DNA of 44,147 nt from Fimbriimonadales bacterium (GCA_046294565.1 JBKBKS010000002.1:1-44147); one strand, 5' to 3'; positions 27,953 through 44,147 are shown, counted from the stretch's first letter. Program-made: numbers and translations. Notes: generated from the sequence alone by a model not told the origin.

Positions 27953-29389
27953 CTACAGCGCGTGCTGAGTCACACTGTTGCCGTCGCAGGTAATCAGGAC
28001 CTGCTCGTCGTCGATGACGGTCTCGATATGCACAGGTCGCCCCCAGAGCTTCGCTAAGTAGCGCATACAACGGGTGGCGCGCTGCATATCGAGCGGCTTG
28101 CCGTCGTAGTGGTGCTTGAGGTAGAGCTCGCCGCGGTGCTCCCAGTCGCCGTCCTCCACTGTCAAAACAGGCATGCCGAAGTTGGTCATGTTATCGACCA
28201 GCGTGTTGCGCACCTTGCGCCAGTCGGTCTCGTCTACCACCCACACCAGCTCGCCGTTGCGCTCTTCCACGCGGTAGGTGTAGAGGTCTAACTCGCGTAC
28301 GAGCCGCTCGGTGAGGTACTTGTGCAGGAAGGTCTGGTCGCACTCCAACGTGCGCACCTCGAAGAGTTTCTGCATGCCCTGCCCGACGGGGCGCTCGATG
28401 CGGTAGCCCATCCAGTCGGTCTCCTGCTCGTCGGGGTCCACCTCGCCGTTCCAGCGACGCTCGATATCGCGCAACACCTTGTAGCCCACATAGTAGGGGT
28501 TCAGGCTGGTGCGCGAGCCGGGCTGCACCACCGACGAGTGCATCTTGCGGAACTGCACATGCTCGTCTGGGGTCAGCGGCAACGCTTCCAAAATCCGCTC
28601 GTGCCAGAAGGTCGCCCACCCCTCGTTGAGGGTCTTCGTCTTAATCTGCGGTAGGAAGTAGAGCATCTCCTCGCGTATCATGCTGATGATGTCGCGTTGC
28701 CAGTCATCCAGCACGCGCGAGTGGTCGCGTAGGAACAGCAGCAGGTCTTTCTGTGGCTCCTCGGGGATTTTGCGCGGCTTGGGTTCGGGTTTGGGCTTGG
28801 GCTGCGCCATGTAGAACAGGTCTTCATAGGTGTCGCCCAGGGGTTTCGGTTCGTCGGCTTCCGCTTTGCGTGGGGGCGCGCCGTAGGTGGGCAGCACAGG
28901 GTCGATATGCTCCTCAATCGACAGCACCGCGTCCAGAAACTGCTCCACCACCAGCGGTCCGTAGCGCATTTCGTAGTCGCGAATGCGCTCGGCGTGGAGG
29001 CGTGTGCGCTCGATCATCCGACGGTCAGTGTGTTCGAAGTAGATGTTGTTCTTGAAAAAGTCGGAGTGCCCGTACACATGCGCCACGACGAGTTTGTGCG
29101 CGAGCATATCGTTCACATCGAGCAGGAACGCTTGGGAAGGGTTGCTGTTGAACACGAGTTCGTAGATTCGGCTCACCCCATACTCGTACATCGTCTTTTG
29201 CACATGGTAGTCGCGTCCGAAGGTCCAGTGCGAGAAGCGCGCGGGCAAGGCATACGAGCCGAGTTCGTAAATCACATGCGCGGGCGCCACCTCGAAATGC
29301 ACGGGGAACGGGTCTAAGCCCATCGCCAGTGCCTGCTCGTAAATCATCTCGATCCAGCGTTCCAGTTCGGCGCGTTCAGCCTGCGTCAT
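27953..29389 (-). CDS. spoVR: SpoVR/YcgB-family protein
   Basis: 478 aa. 'GLDPFPVHFEV', 'RFSHWTFGRDY', 'RIYELVFNSNPSQAFLL', 'HVYGHSDFFKNN', 'EGWATFWH', 'VEDGDWEHRGELYLKH'. Confidence 0.9.
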   Translation of the reverse strand: MTQAERAELERWIEMIYEQALAMGLDPFPVHFEVAPAHVIYELGSYALPARFSHWTFGRDYHVQKTMYEYGVSRIYELVFNSNPSQAFLLDVNDMLAHKLVVAHVYGHSDFFKNNIYFEHTDRRMIERTRLHAERIRDYEMRYGPLVVEQFLDAVLSIEEHIDPVLPTYGAPPRKAEADEPKPLGDTYEDLFYMAQPKPKPEPKPRKIPEEPQKDLLLFLRDHSRVLDDWQRDIISMIREEMLYFLPQIKTKTLNEGWATFWHERILEALPLTPDEHVQFRKMHSSVVQPGSRTSLNPYYVGYKVLRDIERRWNGEVDPDEQETDWMGYRIERPVGQGMQKLFEVRTLECDQTFLHKYLTERLVRELDLYTYRVEERNGELVWVVDETDWRKVRNTLVDNMTNFGMPVLTVEDGDWEHRGELYLKHHYDGKPLDMQRATRCMRYLAKLWGRPVHIETVIDDEQVLITCDGNSVTQHAL

Positions 29390-33174: not shown

Positions 33175-34650
33175 ATGATAGGGCGTCGTGTATTCGGCAT
33201 CGAGACTGAGTTCGGGTGCTTCGTGCGGGACGAGCGCGTGGGTACCTCCGAGACTGTCGTGGAAGCGGTCAAGAACTATGTGTTCAGCAAGGCGCGGCTG
33301 GGACTGATTGACCTGACGGCGCGCGATGAGGCGTTCGAACCCGCGCGCAGCGGCGGCTTCCTTGTCAACGGCGGACGCCTCTATATCGACGCCGTCGGCA
33401 GCCACTTGGAGTACGCCACGCCCGAATGCGCCAGCCTGTTCGATATCGTGGCGCACGAGAAGGCAGGGCAGCGCATCGTCTATAACACGCTCAAACAGAT
33501 GCACTGGGACGAGCGCGTGAGCTTCCACAATAATAATGTCGACCACTTCGCCGGGCACACTTTCGGTTGCCACGAGAACTACTTGGTGCGCACGGACGAC
33601 CGCCTGCCCAGCGATTGGCACAAGCTGGTGCTGCCGTTTCTGACCACGCGCCAAATCTTCGCGGGGGCAGGGCGCGTCGGCGGACATCGCCTCGAACACG
33701 CCGGGTTCCGACCCTCGCTCTCCGAAGTCGCCGACCACCCTATCGATTTCATCTGGGTCTCGAATGTCTATAATGTGGAGCCTGACCCGACTGTGCAGTA
33801 TCAACTTTCGCAACGCGCCGACCACATCGTGCGCGAGAACGCCTCGCGCGTGCGCTTCAACCGCGCGATTATCAATCCGAAGTGGGACAGCGTGTACGGC
33901 TACCAGAACTATCAACGGCTGCACCTGCTGTTCGGCGAGGGCAACATGAGCGAGTACGCCGCCGCGCTGAAAATCGGGACCACCTGCTTGGTGTTAGACC
34001 TTGCCGAAGCGCGCGCCATCCCCAACTGGCTGCGCCTGCAGGACGCCCTACACACCCTCAAGAGCATCTCACGCGACGCCACCCGCAAATGGATTGTCAC
34101 ACTGCTCGATGGCAGCACCATCTCCGCCATCGACCTGCAACGCGCCTACCTGCAACTCGCCCAGAAACGCTTCGCCGGGCGCGACCCCGAAACCGACTGG
34201 GTGCTACACGAGTGGCAGTATGTGCTGGACACCTTAGAGACCGACCCTGAGAAGTTGGAAGACCGCCTCGACTGGTTGATTAAGCTGCGTATCCTGCGCG
34301 AGTATATGGAAGATACGGGCGCACAGTGGGGCGACGAGGCGCTCCACTCCATCGACTTGGAGTATCACAATATCAACCCTGAGCAGGGCCTCTACTACGC
34401 GCTGCAGCAGATGGGCGAGGTGGCGCGCGTCATCGACGATGTGCAGATTGAGGCAGGCGTGACCACGCCGCCCGCCGACACCCGCGCCCACGCGCGCGGC
34501 TATGTCATCAAGAAGCTCGCCGAGCGACGCTACAACCGCTACTACATCGACTGGGACATCGTGTATGTAGACCGCAATCGTCAGGTGGACATGCGCGACC
34601 CGTTCAACACCTACACGCGCGAGGCGGAGCGGTTCGTGATGATGTTGTAG
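33175..34650 (+). CDS. Pup-ligase/deamidase family protein (PafA/Dop homologue, carboxylate-amine ligase fold)
   Basis: 491 aa. 'RRVFGIETEFG', 'NGGRLYIDAVGSHLEYATPEC', 'GCHENYLV', 'LPFLTTRQIFAGAGRVG', 'QLSQRADHI', 'RLHLLFGEGNMSEYAAALKIGTTCLVLDL', 'PPADTRAHARG'. These are the conserved blocks of actinobacterial PafA/Dop. Confidence 0.85.
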   Translation: MIGRRVFGIETEFGCFVRDERVGTSETVVEAVKNYVFSKARLGLIDLTARDEAFEPARSGGFLVNGGRLYIDAVGSHLEYATPECASLFDIVAHEKAGQRIVYNTLKQMHWDERVSFHNNNVDHFAGHTFGCHENYLVRTDDRLPSDWHKLVLPFLTTRQIFAGAGRVGGHRLEHAGFRPSLSEVADHPIDFIWVSNVYNVEPDPTVQYQLSQRADHIVRENASRVRFNRAIINPKWDSVYGYQNYQRLHLLFGEGNMSEYAAALKIGTTCLVLDLAEARAIPNWLRLQDALHTLKSISRDATRKWIVTLLDGSTISAIDLQRAYLQLAQKRFAGRDPETDWVLHEWQYVLDTLETDPEKLEDRLDWLIKLRILREYMEDTGAQWGDEALHSIDLEYHNINPEQGLYYALQQMGEVARVIDDVQIEAGVTTPPADTRAHARGYVIKKLAERRYNRYYIDWDIVYVDRNRQVDMRDPFNTYTREAERFVMML

Positions 34651-38708: not shown

Positions 38709-39521
38709 TCAGCTGAACAACATCTGCTCGTACAGCGCGGCTTGCTGCTGCGCATGCGCCTCGATAGAGGCTCGTTCCTGCTCGCCTAAGTAGACCAGCG
38801 CGGCGACCTCCGCAGGCGCGCCGCCCCCATGCGACCACGCCTCCGCCTGAAGCACCGCCGCCAGTAATCGGCGATTCTCACCGTCGGGCAAGCAAGGCGC
38901 ATGGTGATGCGCTATCGCCTGCACGATGCGCTCAGGCAACCGCCAGTAATCCGCAATCATCGCGCCCACATCCGCATGGTCGCACCCAAAAAGTTGCACC
39001 TCGTGTTCCAGACGCTCCGCCTCGTCGGCAATCGCCGTCAAGGGCTGATAACGCGCTTGGTATCGCGTCATCAGAAACAGCGCGCCGATGTCGTGGAGCA
39101 AGCCGACGATGTAGGCGTCCTCCGCGACCCTGACGCCCCATTTGCAAGTCAGGGCGATTGTGCGCGCACACAGAGCCGTATAGAAGGCGTGACGCCACAA
39201 GCCGCGCTCCATAGCACTGACGCCACGACCTGTTTGGAGCGCGCCCACCGCCGCCACGCTCAGCGCGATGCCTTTCACTGTCTGACTGCCCAGCACTAAC
39301 AGCGCGTGATGAATCGTGCTTATCTGCCGCTCCAGCCCATAGTATGCCGAGTTGGCTACCTGCAGCACGCGACCGCACATCACAGGGTCAGCCGTCATCA
39401 CCGCTTCAATCTGCTCGGTTGTCGCTGTGTCGCTCTCCAGCAGCTCCACCAAGCGCATCACTACCTTCGGCAGCGGGCGCAGCTGCTTCACCGCCTCCGC
39501 AACCTCTTGTCTCATAGCCAT
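38709..39521 (-). CDS. HDOD-domain signalling protein
   Basis: 270 aa. 'LPKVVMRLVELLESDTATTEQIEAVMTADPVMCGRVLQVANSAYYGLERQISTIHHALLVLG', 'GLLHDIGALFL', 'FGCDHADVGAMIADYW'. Confidence 0.85.
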   Translation of the reverse strand: MAMRQEVAEAVKQLRPLPKVVMRLVELLESDTATTEQIEAVMTADPVMCGRVLQVANSAYYGLERQISTIHHALLVLGSQTVKGIALSVAAVGALQTGRGVSAMERGLWRHAFYTALCARTIALTCKWGVRVAEDAYIVGLLHDIGALFLMTRYQARYQPLTAIADEAERLEHEVQLFGCDHADVGAMIADYWRLPERIVQAIAHHHAPCLPDGENRRLLAAVLQAEAWSHGGGAPAEVAALVYLGEQERASIEAHAQQQAALYEQMLFS

Positions 39522-39570
39522 CGATGCTCTCTCCGCCCCTACAAGGTATTATGGTGAGCGGCTCGAAAAA

Positions 39571-40305
39571 ATGCACGCGCATATCGGCGACTGGCGGTTA
39601 TTCAATCAGACGGCGCGTTGGGGGTTGACCCTCAGCGACGCGCAGACGCAGCGGCTCATCGAATATCTGGAACGCCTGTATGAGGTCAACCAGCAGATGA
39701 ACCTGACGCGCGTGCCGCCTGAGCAGGCAGTGGGTCGCCATGTGCTGGATTCGCTCTGCCTGCTCGGCGTCTACCCCATCCCCGAAGGCGCGCGCGTGTT
39801 GGACATCGGCTCCGGCGCAGGACTGCCGGGGATTCCGCTCGCGATAGCCCGCCCTGACTTGCAGTTAACTTTGCTGGATTCTCACGGCAAAACGATACAG
39901 TTTTTGAAAGAAACTTGCACTCTGTTGGGGTTAGGCGCGCAATCGGTACAGGTTCGCGCGGAGGATTGGGCGCACGCTCCTGAGGCTCGTGAACGGTACG
40001 ATTGCGTTGTGGCGCGCGCGGTCGCCAAGATGCCCGTGCTAACGGAGCTGATGACGCCGTTTCTGAAAATAGGCGGCGTCGGGCTTGCGCTCAAGAGCAT
40101 TCACGAACTCGAGGCGATTGAAGCTTCGCACAGAGCGGCGCAGACGCTCGGCGCAACGCTGGAAGTGCGAACCGTAGAGTTCGAGATGGAGACGGGCACG
40201 GTGCAACGCGCCATCGCCATCCTGCGCAAGCAGCGGTCGACGCCTGCACCGTACCCACGCGCGTGGGCGCAGATGCTCAAACGCCCCTTGGGAGGCAAGG
40301 CGTGA
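39571..40305 (+). CDS. rsmG: 16S rRNA (guanine527-N7)-methyltransferase RsmG (GidB)
   Basis: The start was moved to the ATG at 39571, because the track's 5' part is antisense to the HDOD gene. 'MNLTRV..EQAVGRHVLDSL', SAM motif 'VLDIGSGAGLPGIPLAI', 'LLDSHGKTIQFL', 'VVARAVAKM'. Confidence 0.9.
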   Translation: MHAHIGDWRLFNQTARWGLTLSDAQTQRLIEYLERLYEVNQQMNLTRVPPEQAVGRHVLDSLCLLGVYPIPEGARVLDIGSGAGLPGIPLAIARPDLQLTLLDSHGKTIQFLKETCTLLGLGAQSVQVRAEDWAHAPEARERYDCVVARAVAKMPVLTELMTPFLKIGGVGLALKSIHELEAIEASHRAAQTLGATLEVRTVEFEMETGTVQRAIAILRKQRSTPAPYPRAWAQMLKRPLGGKA

Positions 40306-41423
40306 ATATCGGCGTCGACGCGCGCTTGCTCACAGGCGCATATACAGGCGACCGCACCTACTGGCGCGGACTGCTGAAGCAGTTCGCCGAGTTGCTGAAC
40401 CCTACCGAGTACCGTCTGACGCTGTTCGCCACGCGCCCCATGCCCAGCGACGCGCTACCCGAATCGTCGCTGTATGCGTTCGTGGTCGCCCCCGCCCGCA
40501 ACGAGCGCCTCTGGAGCCTGTTCCAACTGCCCAAACTTGCCCAAGCGTACGCTTGCGACTTCATCCACACGCAATACACGGTGTCCCCGTTCTTCAAAAT
40601 CCCCGCCGTGACCACCGTGCATGACATCTCGTTCCTGATTGGACCGCAGTGGTTCCCTTTGAAAGATAGGATTTTGCTCAGGCTCACGGTTCCTGCGTCG
40701 TGTCGTCGGGCGCGGCGCGTATTGACCGTTTCGGAGACCTCGCGCGAGGATATGATTCGCGTGCTTCGCCTGCCCCCTGAGAAGATTATCGCGACTCCGA
40801 ACGGCTTGCCCGAGGGGTTCCACCCGATTCCCCGTGCGCAGGCGCAGGCGTGGGCGCGTGCGCATTACGGGCTTGAGCCGCCCTTCGCGTTGGCGGTCGG
40901 CGTGTTGCAACCGCGCAAGAACTGGGAACTCGCGCTGCTGGCAGTGCAGATGGCGCGTTCGCAGTACGAACTGCCGATACGGCTCGCGCTCACAGGCAAG
41001 TCGGGCTGGGCAAGACGTTCTCTCCAACGCGCCAAACGCGACCTGAACGCTCACGAGTGGCTAATCGAGACGGGTTATGTGCCCGACGAGCATCTCGTGT
41101 GGCTCTATAACGCCGCTGATGTGTTTTTGTATCCCTCATTTTACGAGGGGTTCGGTCTGCCTCCCTTAGAGGCGATGGCGTGCGGAACGCCAGTGATTGC
41201 CTCCAACGGCGGCGCACTGCCCGAAGTGGTCGGCTCAGGGGGCGTCCTGCTCCCGCCCGATGAACCGGGCTTGTGGGCGAACGCTATTCGGAGCATCCTC
41301 GTCTACGACGATTTCCGCGCGAGCCTCTGCGCGAAGGCGCGTCAGCAGGCAACGCGCTTCTCGTGGCGCAACACCGCCGAGCGCACTCTCCAAGCGTATC
41401 AGCAAGCCCTGCAGCACGACTGA
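40302..41423 (+). CDS. GT4-family (GT-B fold) glycosyltransferase
   Basis: The GTG at 40302 follows GGAGG (40291..40295) and overlaps the rsmG stop (GTGA). '[35 protein letters not shown]' is the E-x7-E retaining-GT signature. Confidence 0.9.
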
Positions 41424-41426
41424 GAG

Positions 41427-41752
41427 TTTTCCACATCGATTGTGGAAAACTCTGTGGAAAACCCTGTGGAAAACGCCGCAACGCCGAGTTTTCCACAGAG
41501 TTTTCCACATGGTTTCCACAGTTTTCCACAGAGTTTTCCACATCGAACCCCCCCATTCTTAGCGTAGCTAATTAACTTGTGGGTTAGTAGACAAAAGTTT
41601 CAATTTGAGTTCAAAATTAGGGCTTCAGAGGGGCAAATTTTGTCGACCGCGCGGTCGAAGTAGACAAAGTTTTCCACATTTCCACATTGACCTATTAATA
41701 CCATGGATTCCTTAAATGCATGGAGATTCGAAATTCGATCGCGTGTGGAAAA
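41427..41752. other. Candidate chromosomal replication origin (oriC): 12 DnaA boxes flanking an AT-rich tract
   Basis: TTTTCCACA on the + strand at 41427, 41489, 41501, 41512 (gTTTCCACA), 41522, 41534, 41670 and 41678 (aTTTCCACA). TGTGGAAAA at 41441, 41453, 41465 and 41744. Hand count gives ~39% GC over 41561..41740. rsmG lies 1.1 kb upstream. Confidence 0.75.
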
Positions 41753-41965
41753 CTTTTACGCGCGTGCATTCTCACAAGGGGGCCGTGGACATCTATCAAG
41801 AGGTGCTATGTAGATTACGCGTCAAAACTGCAACTCTGCATCAGCGGTTGTCAAGAGGAGTTCGGGTTCGCGCGGCGCGTTGGCGCGTGATGATGCGAAC
41901 CAGTGCCAGGCGCGTACCCGCCGCTCAGTGGTAGCCTTAACAGCCTTTCTCGCTTAGCAATAGCC

Positions 41966-41994
41966 TGTCATGCCTCGTTTCGCTCGGCATGACA
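41966..41994. repeat. Single self-complementary family-1 repeat unit
   Basis: 'tgtcatgcctcgtttcgctcggcatgaca', with a 9-bp perfect stem tgtcatgcc/ggcatgaca, followed by 'aattttt'. Confidence 0.7.
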
Positions 41995-42224
41995 AATTTT
42001 TGGTGTGGACAGGCGTCAAGTCAGGCAATGCGCCTGTTCAATATACTGTGTACGGCGGCAACGCGAACGGCTGGCTTTGGACACGGACAGGCACGATTGC
42101 TTCCGGTGCAGGTCAGTGGTTCCGCGTATCTATCGAAATGCCGTACCGTACCGAGTGTTTGCGGATTGCGGTTTCAGGTGCGCCACAGCTGCTTCGAAGC
42201 AAGATTGTAGGGGTAAAGGGATGA
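41970..42224 (+). CDS. Small hypothetical protein, paralogue 1 of an unrecognised ~75-aa domain family
   Basis: 84-aa ORF 'LVWTGVKSGNAPVQYTVYGG...GQWFRVSIEMPYRTECLRIAVSGAPQLLRSKIVGVKG', similar to the next two genes. Its stop overlaps the next ATG (ATGA at 42221). The first 9 codons lie inside a repeat unit, so the true start may be the TTG at 42000 or the GTG at 42003. Confidence 0.55.
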   Translation: MPRFARHDKFLVWTGVKSGNAPVQYTVYGGNANGWLWTRTGTIASGAGQWFRVSIEMPYRTECLRIAVSGAPQLLRSKIVGVKG

Positions 42225-42745
42225 ATGATAGACATGACCCGATACGCATTACACGGCGTGAGTTGCTCAAGTGTGTACTGACCCTGCCCTTGAGTGTTGC
42301 GTGCGTAGGGTTGACGCCGCCGCGTGCACACGCCCAGCAGGATGGATTTGCTCCGCCTGAGTGGGAGTGGCTGTTATTGTGGGAAGGGCGTGCGCTTATC
42401 GGGCAACGCGCGTCCGAGTGGCGCGACATCACAGGCAATAACGCGAACGCCTTCGCCACATTACAACACGCCCTCCACTACTCGCAGCTGGTCTGGATGG
42501 GCTACACGATGCGAGGAGGGTATCTGGAATATCGTGTGCTGGCGCGCTCTGTCGGGTTCGAAGGCGTGCCATTGGGTGTCGGATGGTTTCAGGTCGCTCG
42601 GGGCACTCTTACTGCGCCAGCGCAACGCTGGTTTCGCGTTGCGTTCGACGCAGCGCACTGGGACGAGTATCGGGTCGAAGTGCGCAGCCGCTCCCCTCAG
42701 GTGCTGCATAGCCGCCTCTTAGGACGGCGCAACTATATGCCGTAG
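42221..42745 (+). CDS. Tat-signal-like secreted hypothetical protein, paralogue 2 (N-terminal extension plus the same C-terminal domain)
   Basis: The start is the ATG at 42221 within track ORF 42005..42745. 'RITRRELLKCVLTLPLSVACVGLTPPRAHAQQ' resembles a twin-arginine signal. The C-terminal domain is 'LVWMGYTMRGGYLEYRVLARSVGFEGVPLGVGWFQVARGTLTAPAQRWFRVAFDAAHWDEYRVEVRSRSPQVLHSRLLG'. Confidence 0.65.
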   Translation: MNDRHDPIRITRRELLKCVLTLPLSVACVGLTPPRAHAQQDGFAPPEWEWLLLWEGRALIGQRASEWRDITGNNANAFATLQHALHYSQLVWMGYTMRGGYLEYRVLARSVGFEGVPLGVGWFQVARGTLTAPAQRWFRVAFDAAHWDEYRVEVRSRSPQVLHSRLLGRRNYMP

Positions 42746-42772
42746 ATCTAAGCTGCTGCAGGAGGATACACG

Positions 42773-43071
42773 ATGCCAATACGCTTCTTGAAGCAGGACA
42801 GTACCACACCCTCCTCTGGACAGGCGTCAAAACAGGCGCCGCCGACATCAACTACATCATCCTCGCACGCACGACAGACCTCGACGGCAACCCGCTCTGG
42901 ACAGGATGGCTCCAAATCGCCACAGGAACCATCACAGGCGCACCGTACTCTTGGTTCCGCATCGCCGTCACTGCCCCCGAAGGGCTTTACTTCGACCAGT
43001 ACCGCATCGCCGTCAGCCAAGCCTCAGGCTCCCAAGCGCTCTACAATAAACTCGTGGGGGTGCGCCGATGA
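42773..43071 (+). pseudogene. Paralogue 3 of the same family; the domain is in a different frame from its only SD-preceded ATG (frameshifted or recoded)
   Basis: AGGAGG (42760..42765) plus the ATG at 42773 open frame A ('MPIRFLKQD', then S/T/P-rich off-frame-looking sequence). The homologous, GC3-rich sequence 'LLWTGVKTGAADINYIILARTTDLDGNPLWTGWLQIATGTITGAPYSWFRIAVTAPEGLYFDQYRIAVSQASGSQALYNKLVGVRR*' is in the -1 frame (open 42712..43071), which has no ATG/GTG/TTG before the domain. Confidence 0.5.
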
Positions 43072-44147
43072 GCGTTCTCGTCGCATCGGCTGACACCGCC
43101 ACTTGGTTCCCCATCGAACGCACGCTCCGCGCGCTCGGTATCCCCTTCACACGCGCGCTTATCACTGGGGGCGGATTCGCAACACCCACAGGCGTCATCG
43201 GTTGGAGCGACACCACCAATATGCGCAACTACCTGCGCCAGTTCCAAGCCGTGCTAATCTACGATAGACCAGACAACCTCAGCCAAGGCGACCGCGCTTC
43301 ACATCGCACTTGGGCGTGGCTCGCTTGGAACAACCCTGAAGACCCGCCCATCGCCTACTTCAATGTCAACATCCACAGCGCGCTCGCAGGTGCAAACCTC
43401 CCCACCGATTTCCCGCTCATCCGACCGAACATCGCCGACTTGGACAACACTGCGTTCCGCATGCAGCCCAACACCGCCAATGCAACTGCGGAACGGCACG
43501 GCGGCTGGCGCATACGACTGGAACGCGAGCGCGAGGAACTTTATACCCCTGCATACAGCACGCGCGTCTCCAACGGCGCGCTCTACGCCTACCTGTTAGA
43601 TGAAGCGAAACACAACGCGCTCGACGCAAACGGCGAGATAATCGCTCGCCCCATCGGCGAGGATATGACCGCGCCAAACAATGCCATCCTCGCCCACCGC
43701 TACCGCAAACACTACCTCATGCCGATGTTGGATACAGATTCCCGAGCAGGGTCATTCTGGCTCTTGTACGCGCTCAAGCTCTTGGGCGTCGCGCCCCAGC
43801 GCGCGCTCCCCGGTTTCCTCTGCATGGACGACGCGCTCACCGTCCACAACTTCGCAGGGCAAGCAGGACAACCCACACGCGCCCAGTTCGCCCATATCGC
43901 CCACGAGACCTACCGCTACCTCGCCTCAGAGCTCTACCCGCGCACGGGGTGCGCGATGGTCTGCGGGCTTTTTACTGGCGGACGCTATGGCAGGCAACCC
44001 GAACCAACCACAACAACCCTCCAGAACCACTGGGAACTGGTTATGCTCGGCAAATACCGCTCCGCTCCCGACACGCTTGCCGACTTGGAACCCGAAGCGC
44101 ACGCCAAGATTGTGGACTGGCACAACCTGCTCTTGCGCCATCACTAC
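43068..44147 (+). CDS. Hypothetical protein, 360+ aa, 3' end outside the window (absent from the supplied ORF track)
   Basis: Hand translation from the ATG at 43068 (ATGA overlap with the paralogue-3 stop) runs without a stop to the window end: 'MSVLVASADTATWFPIERTLRALGIPF...FLCMDDALTVHNFAGQ...DWHNLLLRHHY'. Third codon positions are strongly G/C. No family was recognised. Confidence 0.7.
   Translation, partial: MSVLVASADTATWFPIERTLRALGIPFTRALITGGGFATPTGVIGWSDTTNMRNYLRQFQAVLIYDRPDNLSQGDRASHRTWAWLAWNNPEDPPIAYFNVNIHSALAGANLPTDFPLIRPNIADLDNTAFRMQPNTANATAERHGGWRIRLEREREELYTPAYSTRVSNGALYAYLLDEAKHNALDANGEIIARPIGEDMTAPNNAILAHRYRKHYLMPMLDTDSRAGSFWLLYALKLLGVAPQRALPGFLCMDDALTVHNFAGQAGQPTRAQFAHIAHETYRYLASELYPRTGCAMVCGLFTGGRYGRQPEPTTTTLQNHWELVMLGKYRSAPDTLADLEPEAHAKIVDWHNLLLRHHY

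Follow-up and report, generated by a model that had tools for sequence, protein, structure and literature searches.

A Fimbriimonadales operon encoding paralogous small proteins and a predicted Agd3-like deacetylase, partly decayed beside a putative replication origin

The locus described here is a four-gene operon (P1–P4) at the right end of a 44,147 nt stretch of DNA from a Fimbriimonadales bacterium (GCA_046294565.1 JBKBKS010000002.1:1-44147), the whole of which is called the window below. The closest described counterpart of its large product, P4, is Agd3 of Aspergillus fumigatus (PDB 6NWZ), a metal-dependent galactosaminogalactan de-N-acetylase that founded families CE18 and CBM87 (PMC7229062). 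The motifs of Agd3 comprise a DD pair supplying the base and a metal ligand (CM1, D377/D378), HxxxH supplying metal ligands (CM2, H510/H514), an arginine (CM3) and a late catalytic histidine (CM4, H668) (PMC7229062). The operon described for bacterial Agd3 homologues carries a glycosyltransferase, a membrane protein and GH114, whereas P4 is always found with a small, predicted beta-sandwich protein. The nearest parallels for export are the hitchhiker complexes that E. coli exports by twin-arginine translocation, or Tat (PaoABC, HybOC and DmsAB), in which one subunit of an operon bears the sole twin-arginine signal; PaoABC is a natural case of three subunits exported on one such signal (PMC4273604). 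We tentatively favour the view that P1–P4 acts on an envelope or extracellular polysaccharide of the Fimbriimonadales (Armatimonadota), with an Agd3-like P4, sugar-binding small proteins and export by Tat hitchhiking. The operon is chromosomal and Fimbriimonadales-specific, and literature searches returned no description of its architecture, a signal-bearing paralogue together with further paralogues and an Agd3-like enzyme.

On the plus strand of region 41970-44147, P1 and P2 are followed by a third frame with a copy of the same domain (P3) and then by the large open reading frame (ORF) of P4. The original prediction had placed three paralogous frames here, and BLASTP among the window products agrees (E = 3e-10 for P1/P2, 2e-15 for P1/P3 and 1.5e-19 for P2/P3); the three are paralogues. 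Both of the ATGA stop/start overlaps it described were also found, at 42221-42224 (P1/P2) and 43068-43071 (P3/P4). The features are listed below, with the basis of each assignment in brackets.

41970..42224, plus strand: P1', an 84 aa, 5'-truncated P1 paralogue (ORF, BLASTP, P1 profile)
42221..42745, plus strand: P2, 174 aa, the sole intact small paralogue in the window (orthologue identity, family profile)
42221..42334, plus strand: predicted twin-arginine signal peptide of P2, aa 1-38 (motif read from the sequence)
42761..42793, plus strand: vestigial P3 start, with GGAGG, the ATG at 42773 and the MPIRFLK codons (P3 orthologue starts)
42794..43071, plus strand: P3 domain remnant, AGQYHTLLWTG...VGVRR and then a stop (reading frame 42796-43071)
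43068..44147, plus strand: N-terminal 360 aa of P4, an Agd3-like putative polysaccharide deacetylase (model, homologues)
43824..43835, plus strand: MDDA motif of P4, candidate counterpart of the DD pair (alignment; inference from PMC7229062)
41427..41752, no strand assigned: DnaA-box cluster, a putative oriC, given for context only and lying outside the module

The window end cuts P4 at residue 360 of a full length of ~680–715 aa. Its closest relative, at locus L019, shares 76% identity with it over the overlap and runs on into LPCTIHDH; among the full-length P4 sequences compared the window protein is closest to the L016 copy (51% identity). An AlphaFold model of the P4 orthologue P0056, built from a 15-sequence alignment (predicted local distance difference test, pLDDT, 85; predicted template modelling score, pTM, 0.89), had one significant match in the PDB, Agd3 (6nwz_A; Foldseek E = 1e-7, probability 1.0), and this ran over the full length and all domains (786 columns). 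The fold so matched is one of three domains, an N-terminal alpha/beta domain, a carbohydrate-binding module (CBM)-like beta domain and a (beta/alpha) barrel esterase domain, and P4 (~680 aa) is of a size comparable to Agd3. The products of the locus had been called unassignable. This is borne out for Pfam, NCBIfam and PHROG, in which neither P1–P4 nor the full-length orthologues gave a significant match; it fails for P4 at the level of predicted fold, where the Foldseek comparison leads to Agd3.

Across 13 divergent sequences, P4 keeps the motifs xD[DH], HDH[ST], RH, E....EM..LGF.D, RA[YF]RR and HP, and the first D of xD[DH] is invariant. In the P0056 model, D260-D261, H364-D365-H366 and H612 each lie at or just past the end of a predicted strand, and the acidic pair, the histidine cluster ~100 residues further on and the late histidine resemble CM1, CM2 and CM4 of Agd3. 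The window P4 carries the first motif, as CMDDA; the remaining motifs fall past the window end and are present in L019. The MDDA is a candidate counterpart of the 'DD' of CE4 MT1 and Agd3 CM1, which acts as catalytic base and metal ligand. Judged from the modelled fold, P4 is probably a metal-dependent enzyme that strips an amino-sugar polymer of its N-acetyl groups. With the CE4 deacetylases (PgaB, IcaB, PelA-type) it would share metal-dependent de-N-acetylation of a secreted amino-sugar polymer and an Asp/His/His arrangement; it differs from them in having no Pfam Polysacc_deac_1 match, in being much larger and multi-domain, and in its operon partners.

The domain shared by the small proteins had been put at ~75 aa. 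Its true length, seen in the orthologues and in P2, is ~115–120 aa, including an N-terminal LL..x.TVD..RDLLGN....PTL..C..Y segment, and among the small proteins of the window only P2 has the whole of it. A model of the truncated window P3, made from a three-sequence alignment, is a six-strand beta-sandwich (pLDDT 79) whose best Foldseek matches were DUF1425, CBM16 and CBM22 (E 0.1–0.4), with Fbs1 also matched; the weak matches were mostly to carbohydrate-binding modules. There was a weak profile match to beta-N-acetylhexosaminidase chains, as well as local matches inside F5/8-type-C and PepX_C domains (hhalign to F5/8-type-C-containing proteins, ~4% probability). Like the CBM jelly rolls (F5/8 type C, CBM16, CBM22, CBM32) the domain is predicted to be all-beta, and its C-terminal GW..(I/V).(T/S)G(T/S)(I/L).G....W.R(V/I)......YR(I/V).V can be aligned locally to the last part of the F5/8-type-C domain; it differs from them in that its matches lie below significance and it is shorter than a typical discoidin domain. 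Taken together, these several weak signals are no more than suggestive of a sugar-binding jelly roll, and P1, P2 and P3 are probably beta-sandwiches of the galactose-binding-like or CBM type.

P2 is 60% identical to the P2 of locus L011 over 169 aa, and searches of Pfam and NCBIfam placed it in no family of any kind. Its N-terminus reads ITRRELLK-CVLTLPLSVACVGL-TPPRAHA and then Q, where CVLTLPLSVACVGL is the hydrophobic region and cleavage is predicted before Q. When compared with a Tat signal, whose marks are S/T-R-R-x-F-L-K, an h-region of moderate hydrophobicity and an AxA site, this is a putative Tat signal by its motif, and TRRE[ML]LK was present in all nine P2 orthologues checked, which span the family. 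The proposal that only P2 has a twin-arginine-like signal stands, as P1, P3 and P4 lack a signal peptide. A scan of ~20 large ORFs of the window brought up no tat gene. Fusions of a Tat-signal P2-type domain to a P3-type domain occur in hot-spring metagenomes (P0003, P0004 and P0005, 297–308 aa; L028, 418-1278), and such natural fusions would fit P2 and P3 acting together.

An exhaustive search of 1.84 billion representative proteins with a profile of the truncated domain gave 50 matches, among them ~30 small proteins with the domain and some unrelated repeat proteins. The giant repetitive proteins matched in this way carry assorted Ig-like, PPC and discoidin repeats and were set aside as partial beta-strand pattern matches. 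A full-length P3 profile returned at least 831 clusters. The single-sequence search with P4 gave at least 14 clusters (homologues of 655–714 aa), a number limited by the word index, since P4 genes follow P3 in every new locus examined. All source names seen were 'hypothetical protein', and the organisms named were Fimbriimonadales or Armatimonadota metagenome-assembled genomes (MAGs). For gene order, 42 related loci were scanned with profiles. A P-domain ORF lies directly upstream of P4 in every locus that shows a P4 start (30/30), and the P3/P4 ATGA overlap is found again in L004 and L011, the orthologues whose P4 starts were read directly. The order P1-P2-P3-P4, for which a check of conservation had been proposed, recurs in many Fimbriimonadales contigs (L003-L008, L011-L013, L015, L042 and L043), and the operon occupies at least seven genomic contexts besides that of the window.

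Context A: dnaG...Amidase_2-P1-P2-P3-P4-GT4, in L015, L040 and L043 (contigs up to 1.49 Mb)
Context B: Aspartokinase-AtpI-126 aa-protease/scaffold-cement-capsid-P1-P2-P3-P4, in L011, L012 and L042
Context C: RemA...protease/scaffold-cement-capsid-P3-P4, in L009, L010, L014 and L017
Context D: P1-P2-P3-P4-FtsW, in L004-L008, L018, L022 and L023
Context E: three tail-like proteins, a holin-like small protein, a CHAP endolysin, then P3-P4, in L016 and L033
Context F: the window locus
Context G: a gyrase/topoisomerase gene, then P1-P2-P3, in L003
Context H: P2-P3-P4, or a P2-P3 fusion then P4, in hot-spring contigs

In one clade, represented by contigs of 1.49 Mb and 136 kb, context A is a syntenic position among housekeeping genes. 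P3–P4 is the constant core of the module and P1–P2 is absent from some contexts; the role of 'scaffold' once given to P2 is not supported, P1 and P2 being dispensable. The suggestion of an undescribed system is sustained by a conserved module whose products are named hypothetical throughout.

The favoured mechanism would run as follows. P4 would be a three-domain enzyme, related in fold to Agd3/CE18 and CE4, that deacetylates a glycan. P3 would be its obligatory partner, made by translational coupling, the two forming the invariant core, with P1 and P2 as an accessory pair of paralogues. P1, P2 and P3 would bind P4, the glycan or both, and the pre-folded complex would cross the membrane on the Tat signal of P2, which would be the most economical route for P3 and P4, neither of which has a signal. 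The arrangement resembles the E. coli hitchhikers in having a single signal-bearing subunit. It differs from them in that PaoABC, HybOC and DmsAB are cofactor-containing redox enzymes, whereas no cofactor-binding domain was detected in P1–P4, and in that two of the presumed passengers are paralogues of the signal-bearing P2.

Several observations weigh against this explanation. The lineages without P1–P2 (L009, L014, L016 and L033) have a signal peptide on none of the products, and Tat hitchhiking is therefore no general requirement for P3–P4. Without P2, P3–P4 must reach the substrate otherwise, lysis being the obvious route in context E, and this is the main weakness of the proposal. Several homologous loci also adjoin phage genes, suggesting a different biology. 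The template modelling (TM)-score of the P4 model to Agd3 is only 0.43–0.44, the second motif is H-D-H (HxH) instead of HxxxH, and one P4 clade has D-H in place of D-D. Pfam gave no sequence link from P4 to Agd3 or CE4, nor did a comparison of a 15-sequence P4 profile with the PDB (one chance match, E 1.2). At the sequence level P4 did not fall within CE18, and because no sequence-level link to Agd3 was detected it is described here as functioning in the manner of an Agd3/CE4 deacetylase without being assigned to CE18; it differs from Agd3 besides in lacking a signal peptide. As for the small domain, all fold matches were non-significant (E >= 0.1) and came from the truncated three-sequence model, and comparison with Pfam, NCBIfam, PHROGs and PDB sequences yielded no link to a CBM family or any other.

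The phage neighbours are of two kinds. In contexts B and C, an orphan head module lies directly upstream of the P genes in two chromosomal settings (L011/L012/L042 and L009/L010/L014/L017). Its three genes code for a Mu-I-like protease/scaffold, for a cement protein (Phage_cement_2) and for an HK97 major capsid protein resembling Mu gpT (L011, 6364-8476; L009, 7279-9467; L014, 7047-9469; L042, 6738-8886). Within 10 kb of them there is no portal, terminase or tail gene, and the module could be a domesticated capsid. In context E, a prophage-like block flanks P3–P4 (L016, 576-9542; L033, 221-10734), with gene orientation differing between the two. It includes a minor tail protein (phrog_290, E = 1e-20; Phage_tube_2), two large recurring unknown proteins, a CHAP endolysin and a small protein that is holin-like by its hydrophobic N-terminus only and has no family match.

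These neighbours bear on an alternative that we consider unlikely, namely that P3–P4 is a phage-derived adsorption module. Here P3 would be a receptor-binding protein of the short kind, anchored by its conserved N-terminus (MPxRFLK...PLPV) and ending in a jelly-roll head, P4 would be an enzyme carried by the virion that deacetylates the receptor, and the chromosomal copies, that of the window included, would be prophage remnants or lysogenic-conversion genes. BppL of lactococcal phage TP901-1 is a short receptor-binding protein of ~160 aa, and P3 is like it, as a lead only, in its size, its N-terminal anchor with a predicted C-terminal beta-sandwich head and its tail-gene neighbours in L016 and L033; P3 differs in having no sequence or PHROG match and in being absent from phage databases. 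The chief support for the alternative is that the P2-less lineages need another route out of the cell, which lysis would offer in context E, where P3–P4 stands beside the tail protein, the holin-like protein and the endolysin. It is also consistent with the position of the operon directly after the head protease/scaffold, cement and capsid genes in L009/L014 and L011/L042, with the closeness of the window P4 to the L016 copy, and with the recurrent frameshifts, truncations and in-frame stops, as expected of decaying prophage genes. Against it, no relative of P3 or P4 was found by tblastn in 50,697 sequenced phage records or in IMG/VR contigs, no PHROG matched, and phage genes are nearby in only some of the MAG contigs, so that the proteins were not placed among phage virion or adsorption components. 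A Foldseek comparison of P4 with viral structures gave one unnamed, uninformative match (TM 0.23). On two contigs, of 342 kb and 1.49 Mb, the setting is a housekeeping one, and no integrase, portal, terminase or tail gene comes within 10 kb of the operon. The ORFs have remained intact across ~30–60% protein divergence, which implies that they are under selection in the host, and the conserved Tat signal of P2 is a feature of cellular export, not of virions.

More doubtful than an adsorption module is a cytoplasmic P4 that acts on a lipid-linked or nucleotide-activated sugar intermediate of an envelope glycan, with the P proteins in regulatory or adaptor roles and only P2 exported, for a separate purpose. 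The absence of a signal peptide from P1, P3 and P4 would be explained directly, and the company of sugar-related genes is in keeping with it: a GT4 gene adjoins the operon in the window (40263-41423), a convergent GT4 gene is present in L015/L040/L043, and epimerase-like ORFs, recognised by eye only, lie beside the operon in L019. However, the site of action of Agd3 and of the CE4 exopolysaccharide deacetylases is outside the cytoplasm (PMC7229062), and paralogy between exported and non-exported proteins, together with translational coupling, fits a single complex better than two separate roles.

A reading to which we give slightly less credence again is that P3–P4 (with P1–P2 where present) partners the orphan head module: some Fimbriimonadales would retain a domesticated capsid particle carrying or displaying lectin-like subunits and the deacetylase, and other lineages, that of the window among them, would have freed the module by adding a Tat-bearing paralogue, P2, that exports its own paralogues and the ~700-aa enzyme as a single folded complex. 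Least probable of all is an encapsulin-like domesticated capsid, in which protease/scaffold, cement and HK97 capsid protein form a particle with the P proteins and P4 as cargo or decoration, the P3 N-terminus as targeting or anchoring peptide and the window as the cargo half only; the strongly conserved P3 N-terminal motif and the seven-gene protease-cement-MCP (major capsid protein)-P1-P2-P3-P4 order (or the same minus P1-P2), lacking phage packaging and tail genes nearby, speak for it. Against it stand the absence of any tblastn match to the three head-module proteins in the window, where no shell gene adjoins the presumed cargo, the lack of a nearby capsid gene in most contexts (the window, L004, L015, L040 and L043 among them), a capsid protein that matches true phage families (Mu gpT, E = 3e-59) and not encapsulin families, a cement protein and a protease that are phage-head features, and a Tat signal that conflicts with cytoplasmic packaging. 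The orphan head module beside the operon is a separate lead on capsid-gene domestication.

The copy of the operon in the window is itself partly decayed; P2 and the visible part of P4 are intact. P1 and P3 had been taken for naturally 'bare domains', a view that does not survive comparison with the orthologues, which are longer (115–124 aa for P1, 156–179 aa for P3). With hmmsearch, the window P1 corresponds to positions 37-115 of a 115-position profile built from eight P1 orthologues of 115–131 aa (117.5 bits), and against a 155-position profile of the P3-orthologue family the window P1, P2 and P3 cover positions 70-155, 46-155 and 57-155, respectively. A TAG stop (41961-41963) lies two codons 5' of the P1 ATG, and the start is preceded by neither a Shine–Dalgarno sequence nor the TATAAT found before orthologue P1 starts. 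The G+C content at third codon positions (GC3) is 0.55 for P1 (41970-42221), compared with 0.67 for P2, 0.75 for the P3 domain frame, 0.74 for P4 and 0.76 for the GT4 gene; in a sample of 84 codons only, the low P1 value fits relaxed selection on a truncated gene. The stretch CEPVPG...GSLNSL upstream of 41970 was considered as an out-of-frame P1 N-terminus and rejected as a chance likeness (P1 profile, -2.3 bits). As read from these alignments, the window P1 has lost its first third (~36 positions) and its native start. In L011 (8625-8651) and L003 (515-541), a perfect TATAAT ends 7 nt before the P1 ATG with no Shine–Dalgarno sequence, a placement that suggests translation of the operon's first gene from a leaderless mRNA.

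P3 had been presented as an ordinary gene, yet neither ATG, GTG nor TTG provides a start for its domain in frame, and it is missing from a listing of the window's ORFs. The only P3 start backed by a Shine–Dalgarno sequence (GGAGG at 42761-42765, ATG at 42773) is in a different frame from the domain. It encodes MPIRFLK, the conserved N-terminus of P3 orthologues (MP[IV]RFLKNASEIADVSW.SPLPV...), and matches the orthologue start pattern aaGGAGGacacacgATGCC(n)(n)TACG(n)TTCTTGAA. After codon 7 the sequence jumps to AGQYHTLLWTG, residue ~66 in the orthologues, across a gap of ~175 nt (3n+1) that has removed codons ~8-65 of the ancestral gene (junction ~42793/42794). Because the deletion is of 3n+1 nt, the domain lies in the -1 frame relative to the ATG at 42773. 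The remnant is 69% identical to residues 62-157 of the L011 P3, and GC3 is 0.75 in the domain frame, like that of its neighbours (0.74–0.76), and 0.58 in the ATG frame, which supports disruption of the frame; the ATG frame itself turns non-coding-like after MPIRFLK and yields a 106 aa low-complexity product ending at 43093.

An assembly error was discounted, as an independent assembly from Logan (L001, SRR31360861) has the same 921 nt, deletion junction included, with the reservation that both assemblies may come from the same sample. Programmed -1 frameshifting was rejected in the absence of an X XXY YYZ slippery site at 42773-42800 and with orthologues that are uninterrupted single ORFs, and a non-canonical start was rejected as its sole candidate, ATA at 42766, directly abuts the Shine–Dalgarno sequence. 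The window P3 is probably a deletion pseudogene, and with this member of its core broken and P1 cut short, the module there is probably impaired.

Independent damage is seen in other lineages too, and part of it may be sequencing error. P1 is cut to its last 25 codons in L040 (9391-9480) and L041 (637-726), the sister locus L043 being whole, and P3 is frameshifted near its C-terminus in L015 (9358-9998). P0008, a P3 homologue, is probably frameshifted as well, since by inspection of its sequence only the first ~55 aa look out-of-frame between two compensating shifts. Interruptions of P4 occur in L002/L024 and in L034; in the ENA contig L002, positions 1-20 are an untrimmed Nextera transposase adapter (...DVYKRQ / MCIRDR) that truncates the P4 homologue there.

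The rest of the 44-kb window is ordinary housekeeping chromosome. Upstream of the operon are rsmG/GidB (39352-40305) and the GT4 glycosyltransferase gene, and between the latter and P1, ~1.1 kb from rsmG/GidB, lies the dense DnaA-box-like cluster, with 12 sites on both strands, ten being exact copies of TTTTCCACA. Across the window such sites number 22, where chance alone would give 4.3. Beyond the cluster the GC is lower (0.54 for 41001-42000). No dnaA gene was seen beside the cluster in the window, and it is likely to be oriC. The original prediction had attached weight to the adjacency of operon and origin. The DnaA-box cluster is real, and the position has no conserved meaning: none of the 42 related loci has such a cluster near the operon, which occupies its other contexts without one. 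Since DnaA boxes accompany the operon in the window only, the origin-adjacent position is incidental. A gene of the Pup-ligase family (PafA/Dop-like, E = 5e-126) lies at 33175-34650 in the window, and a SpoVR-like gene at 27953-29389; a Pup-ligase gene on an apparent Armatimonadota chromosome is perhaps notable for pupylation outside the Actinobacteria and Nitrospirae.

With two of its four genes damaged and its origin adjacency coincidental, the window itself is of lower value than the family it leads to. The biochemistry is likely to be of known kinds, exopolysaccharide or envelope polysaccharide deacetylation and Tat export, carried out by two protein families that are both uncharacterised. 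If the favoured explanation is correct, the small proteins would be a new beta-sandwich family of at least 831 sequence clusters without a Pfam model, and P4 would represent a highly divergent branch of Agd3/CE4 deacetylases, detectable through structure prediction only. The operon would also be an unusual Tat case, its signal-bearing subunit being paralogous to the presumed passengers, and it would be a pointer to a deacetylated polysaccharide, new to science, of the envelope or biofilm in the Armatimonadota, a phylum with very few characterised genes.

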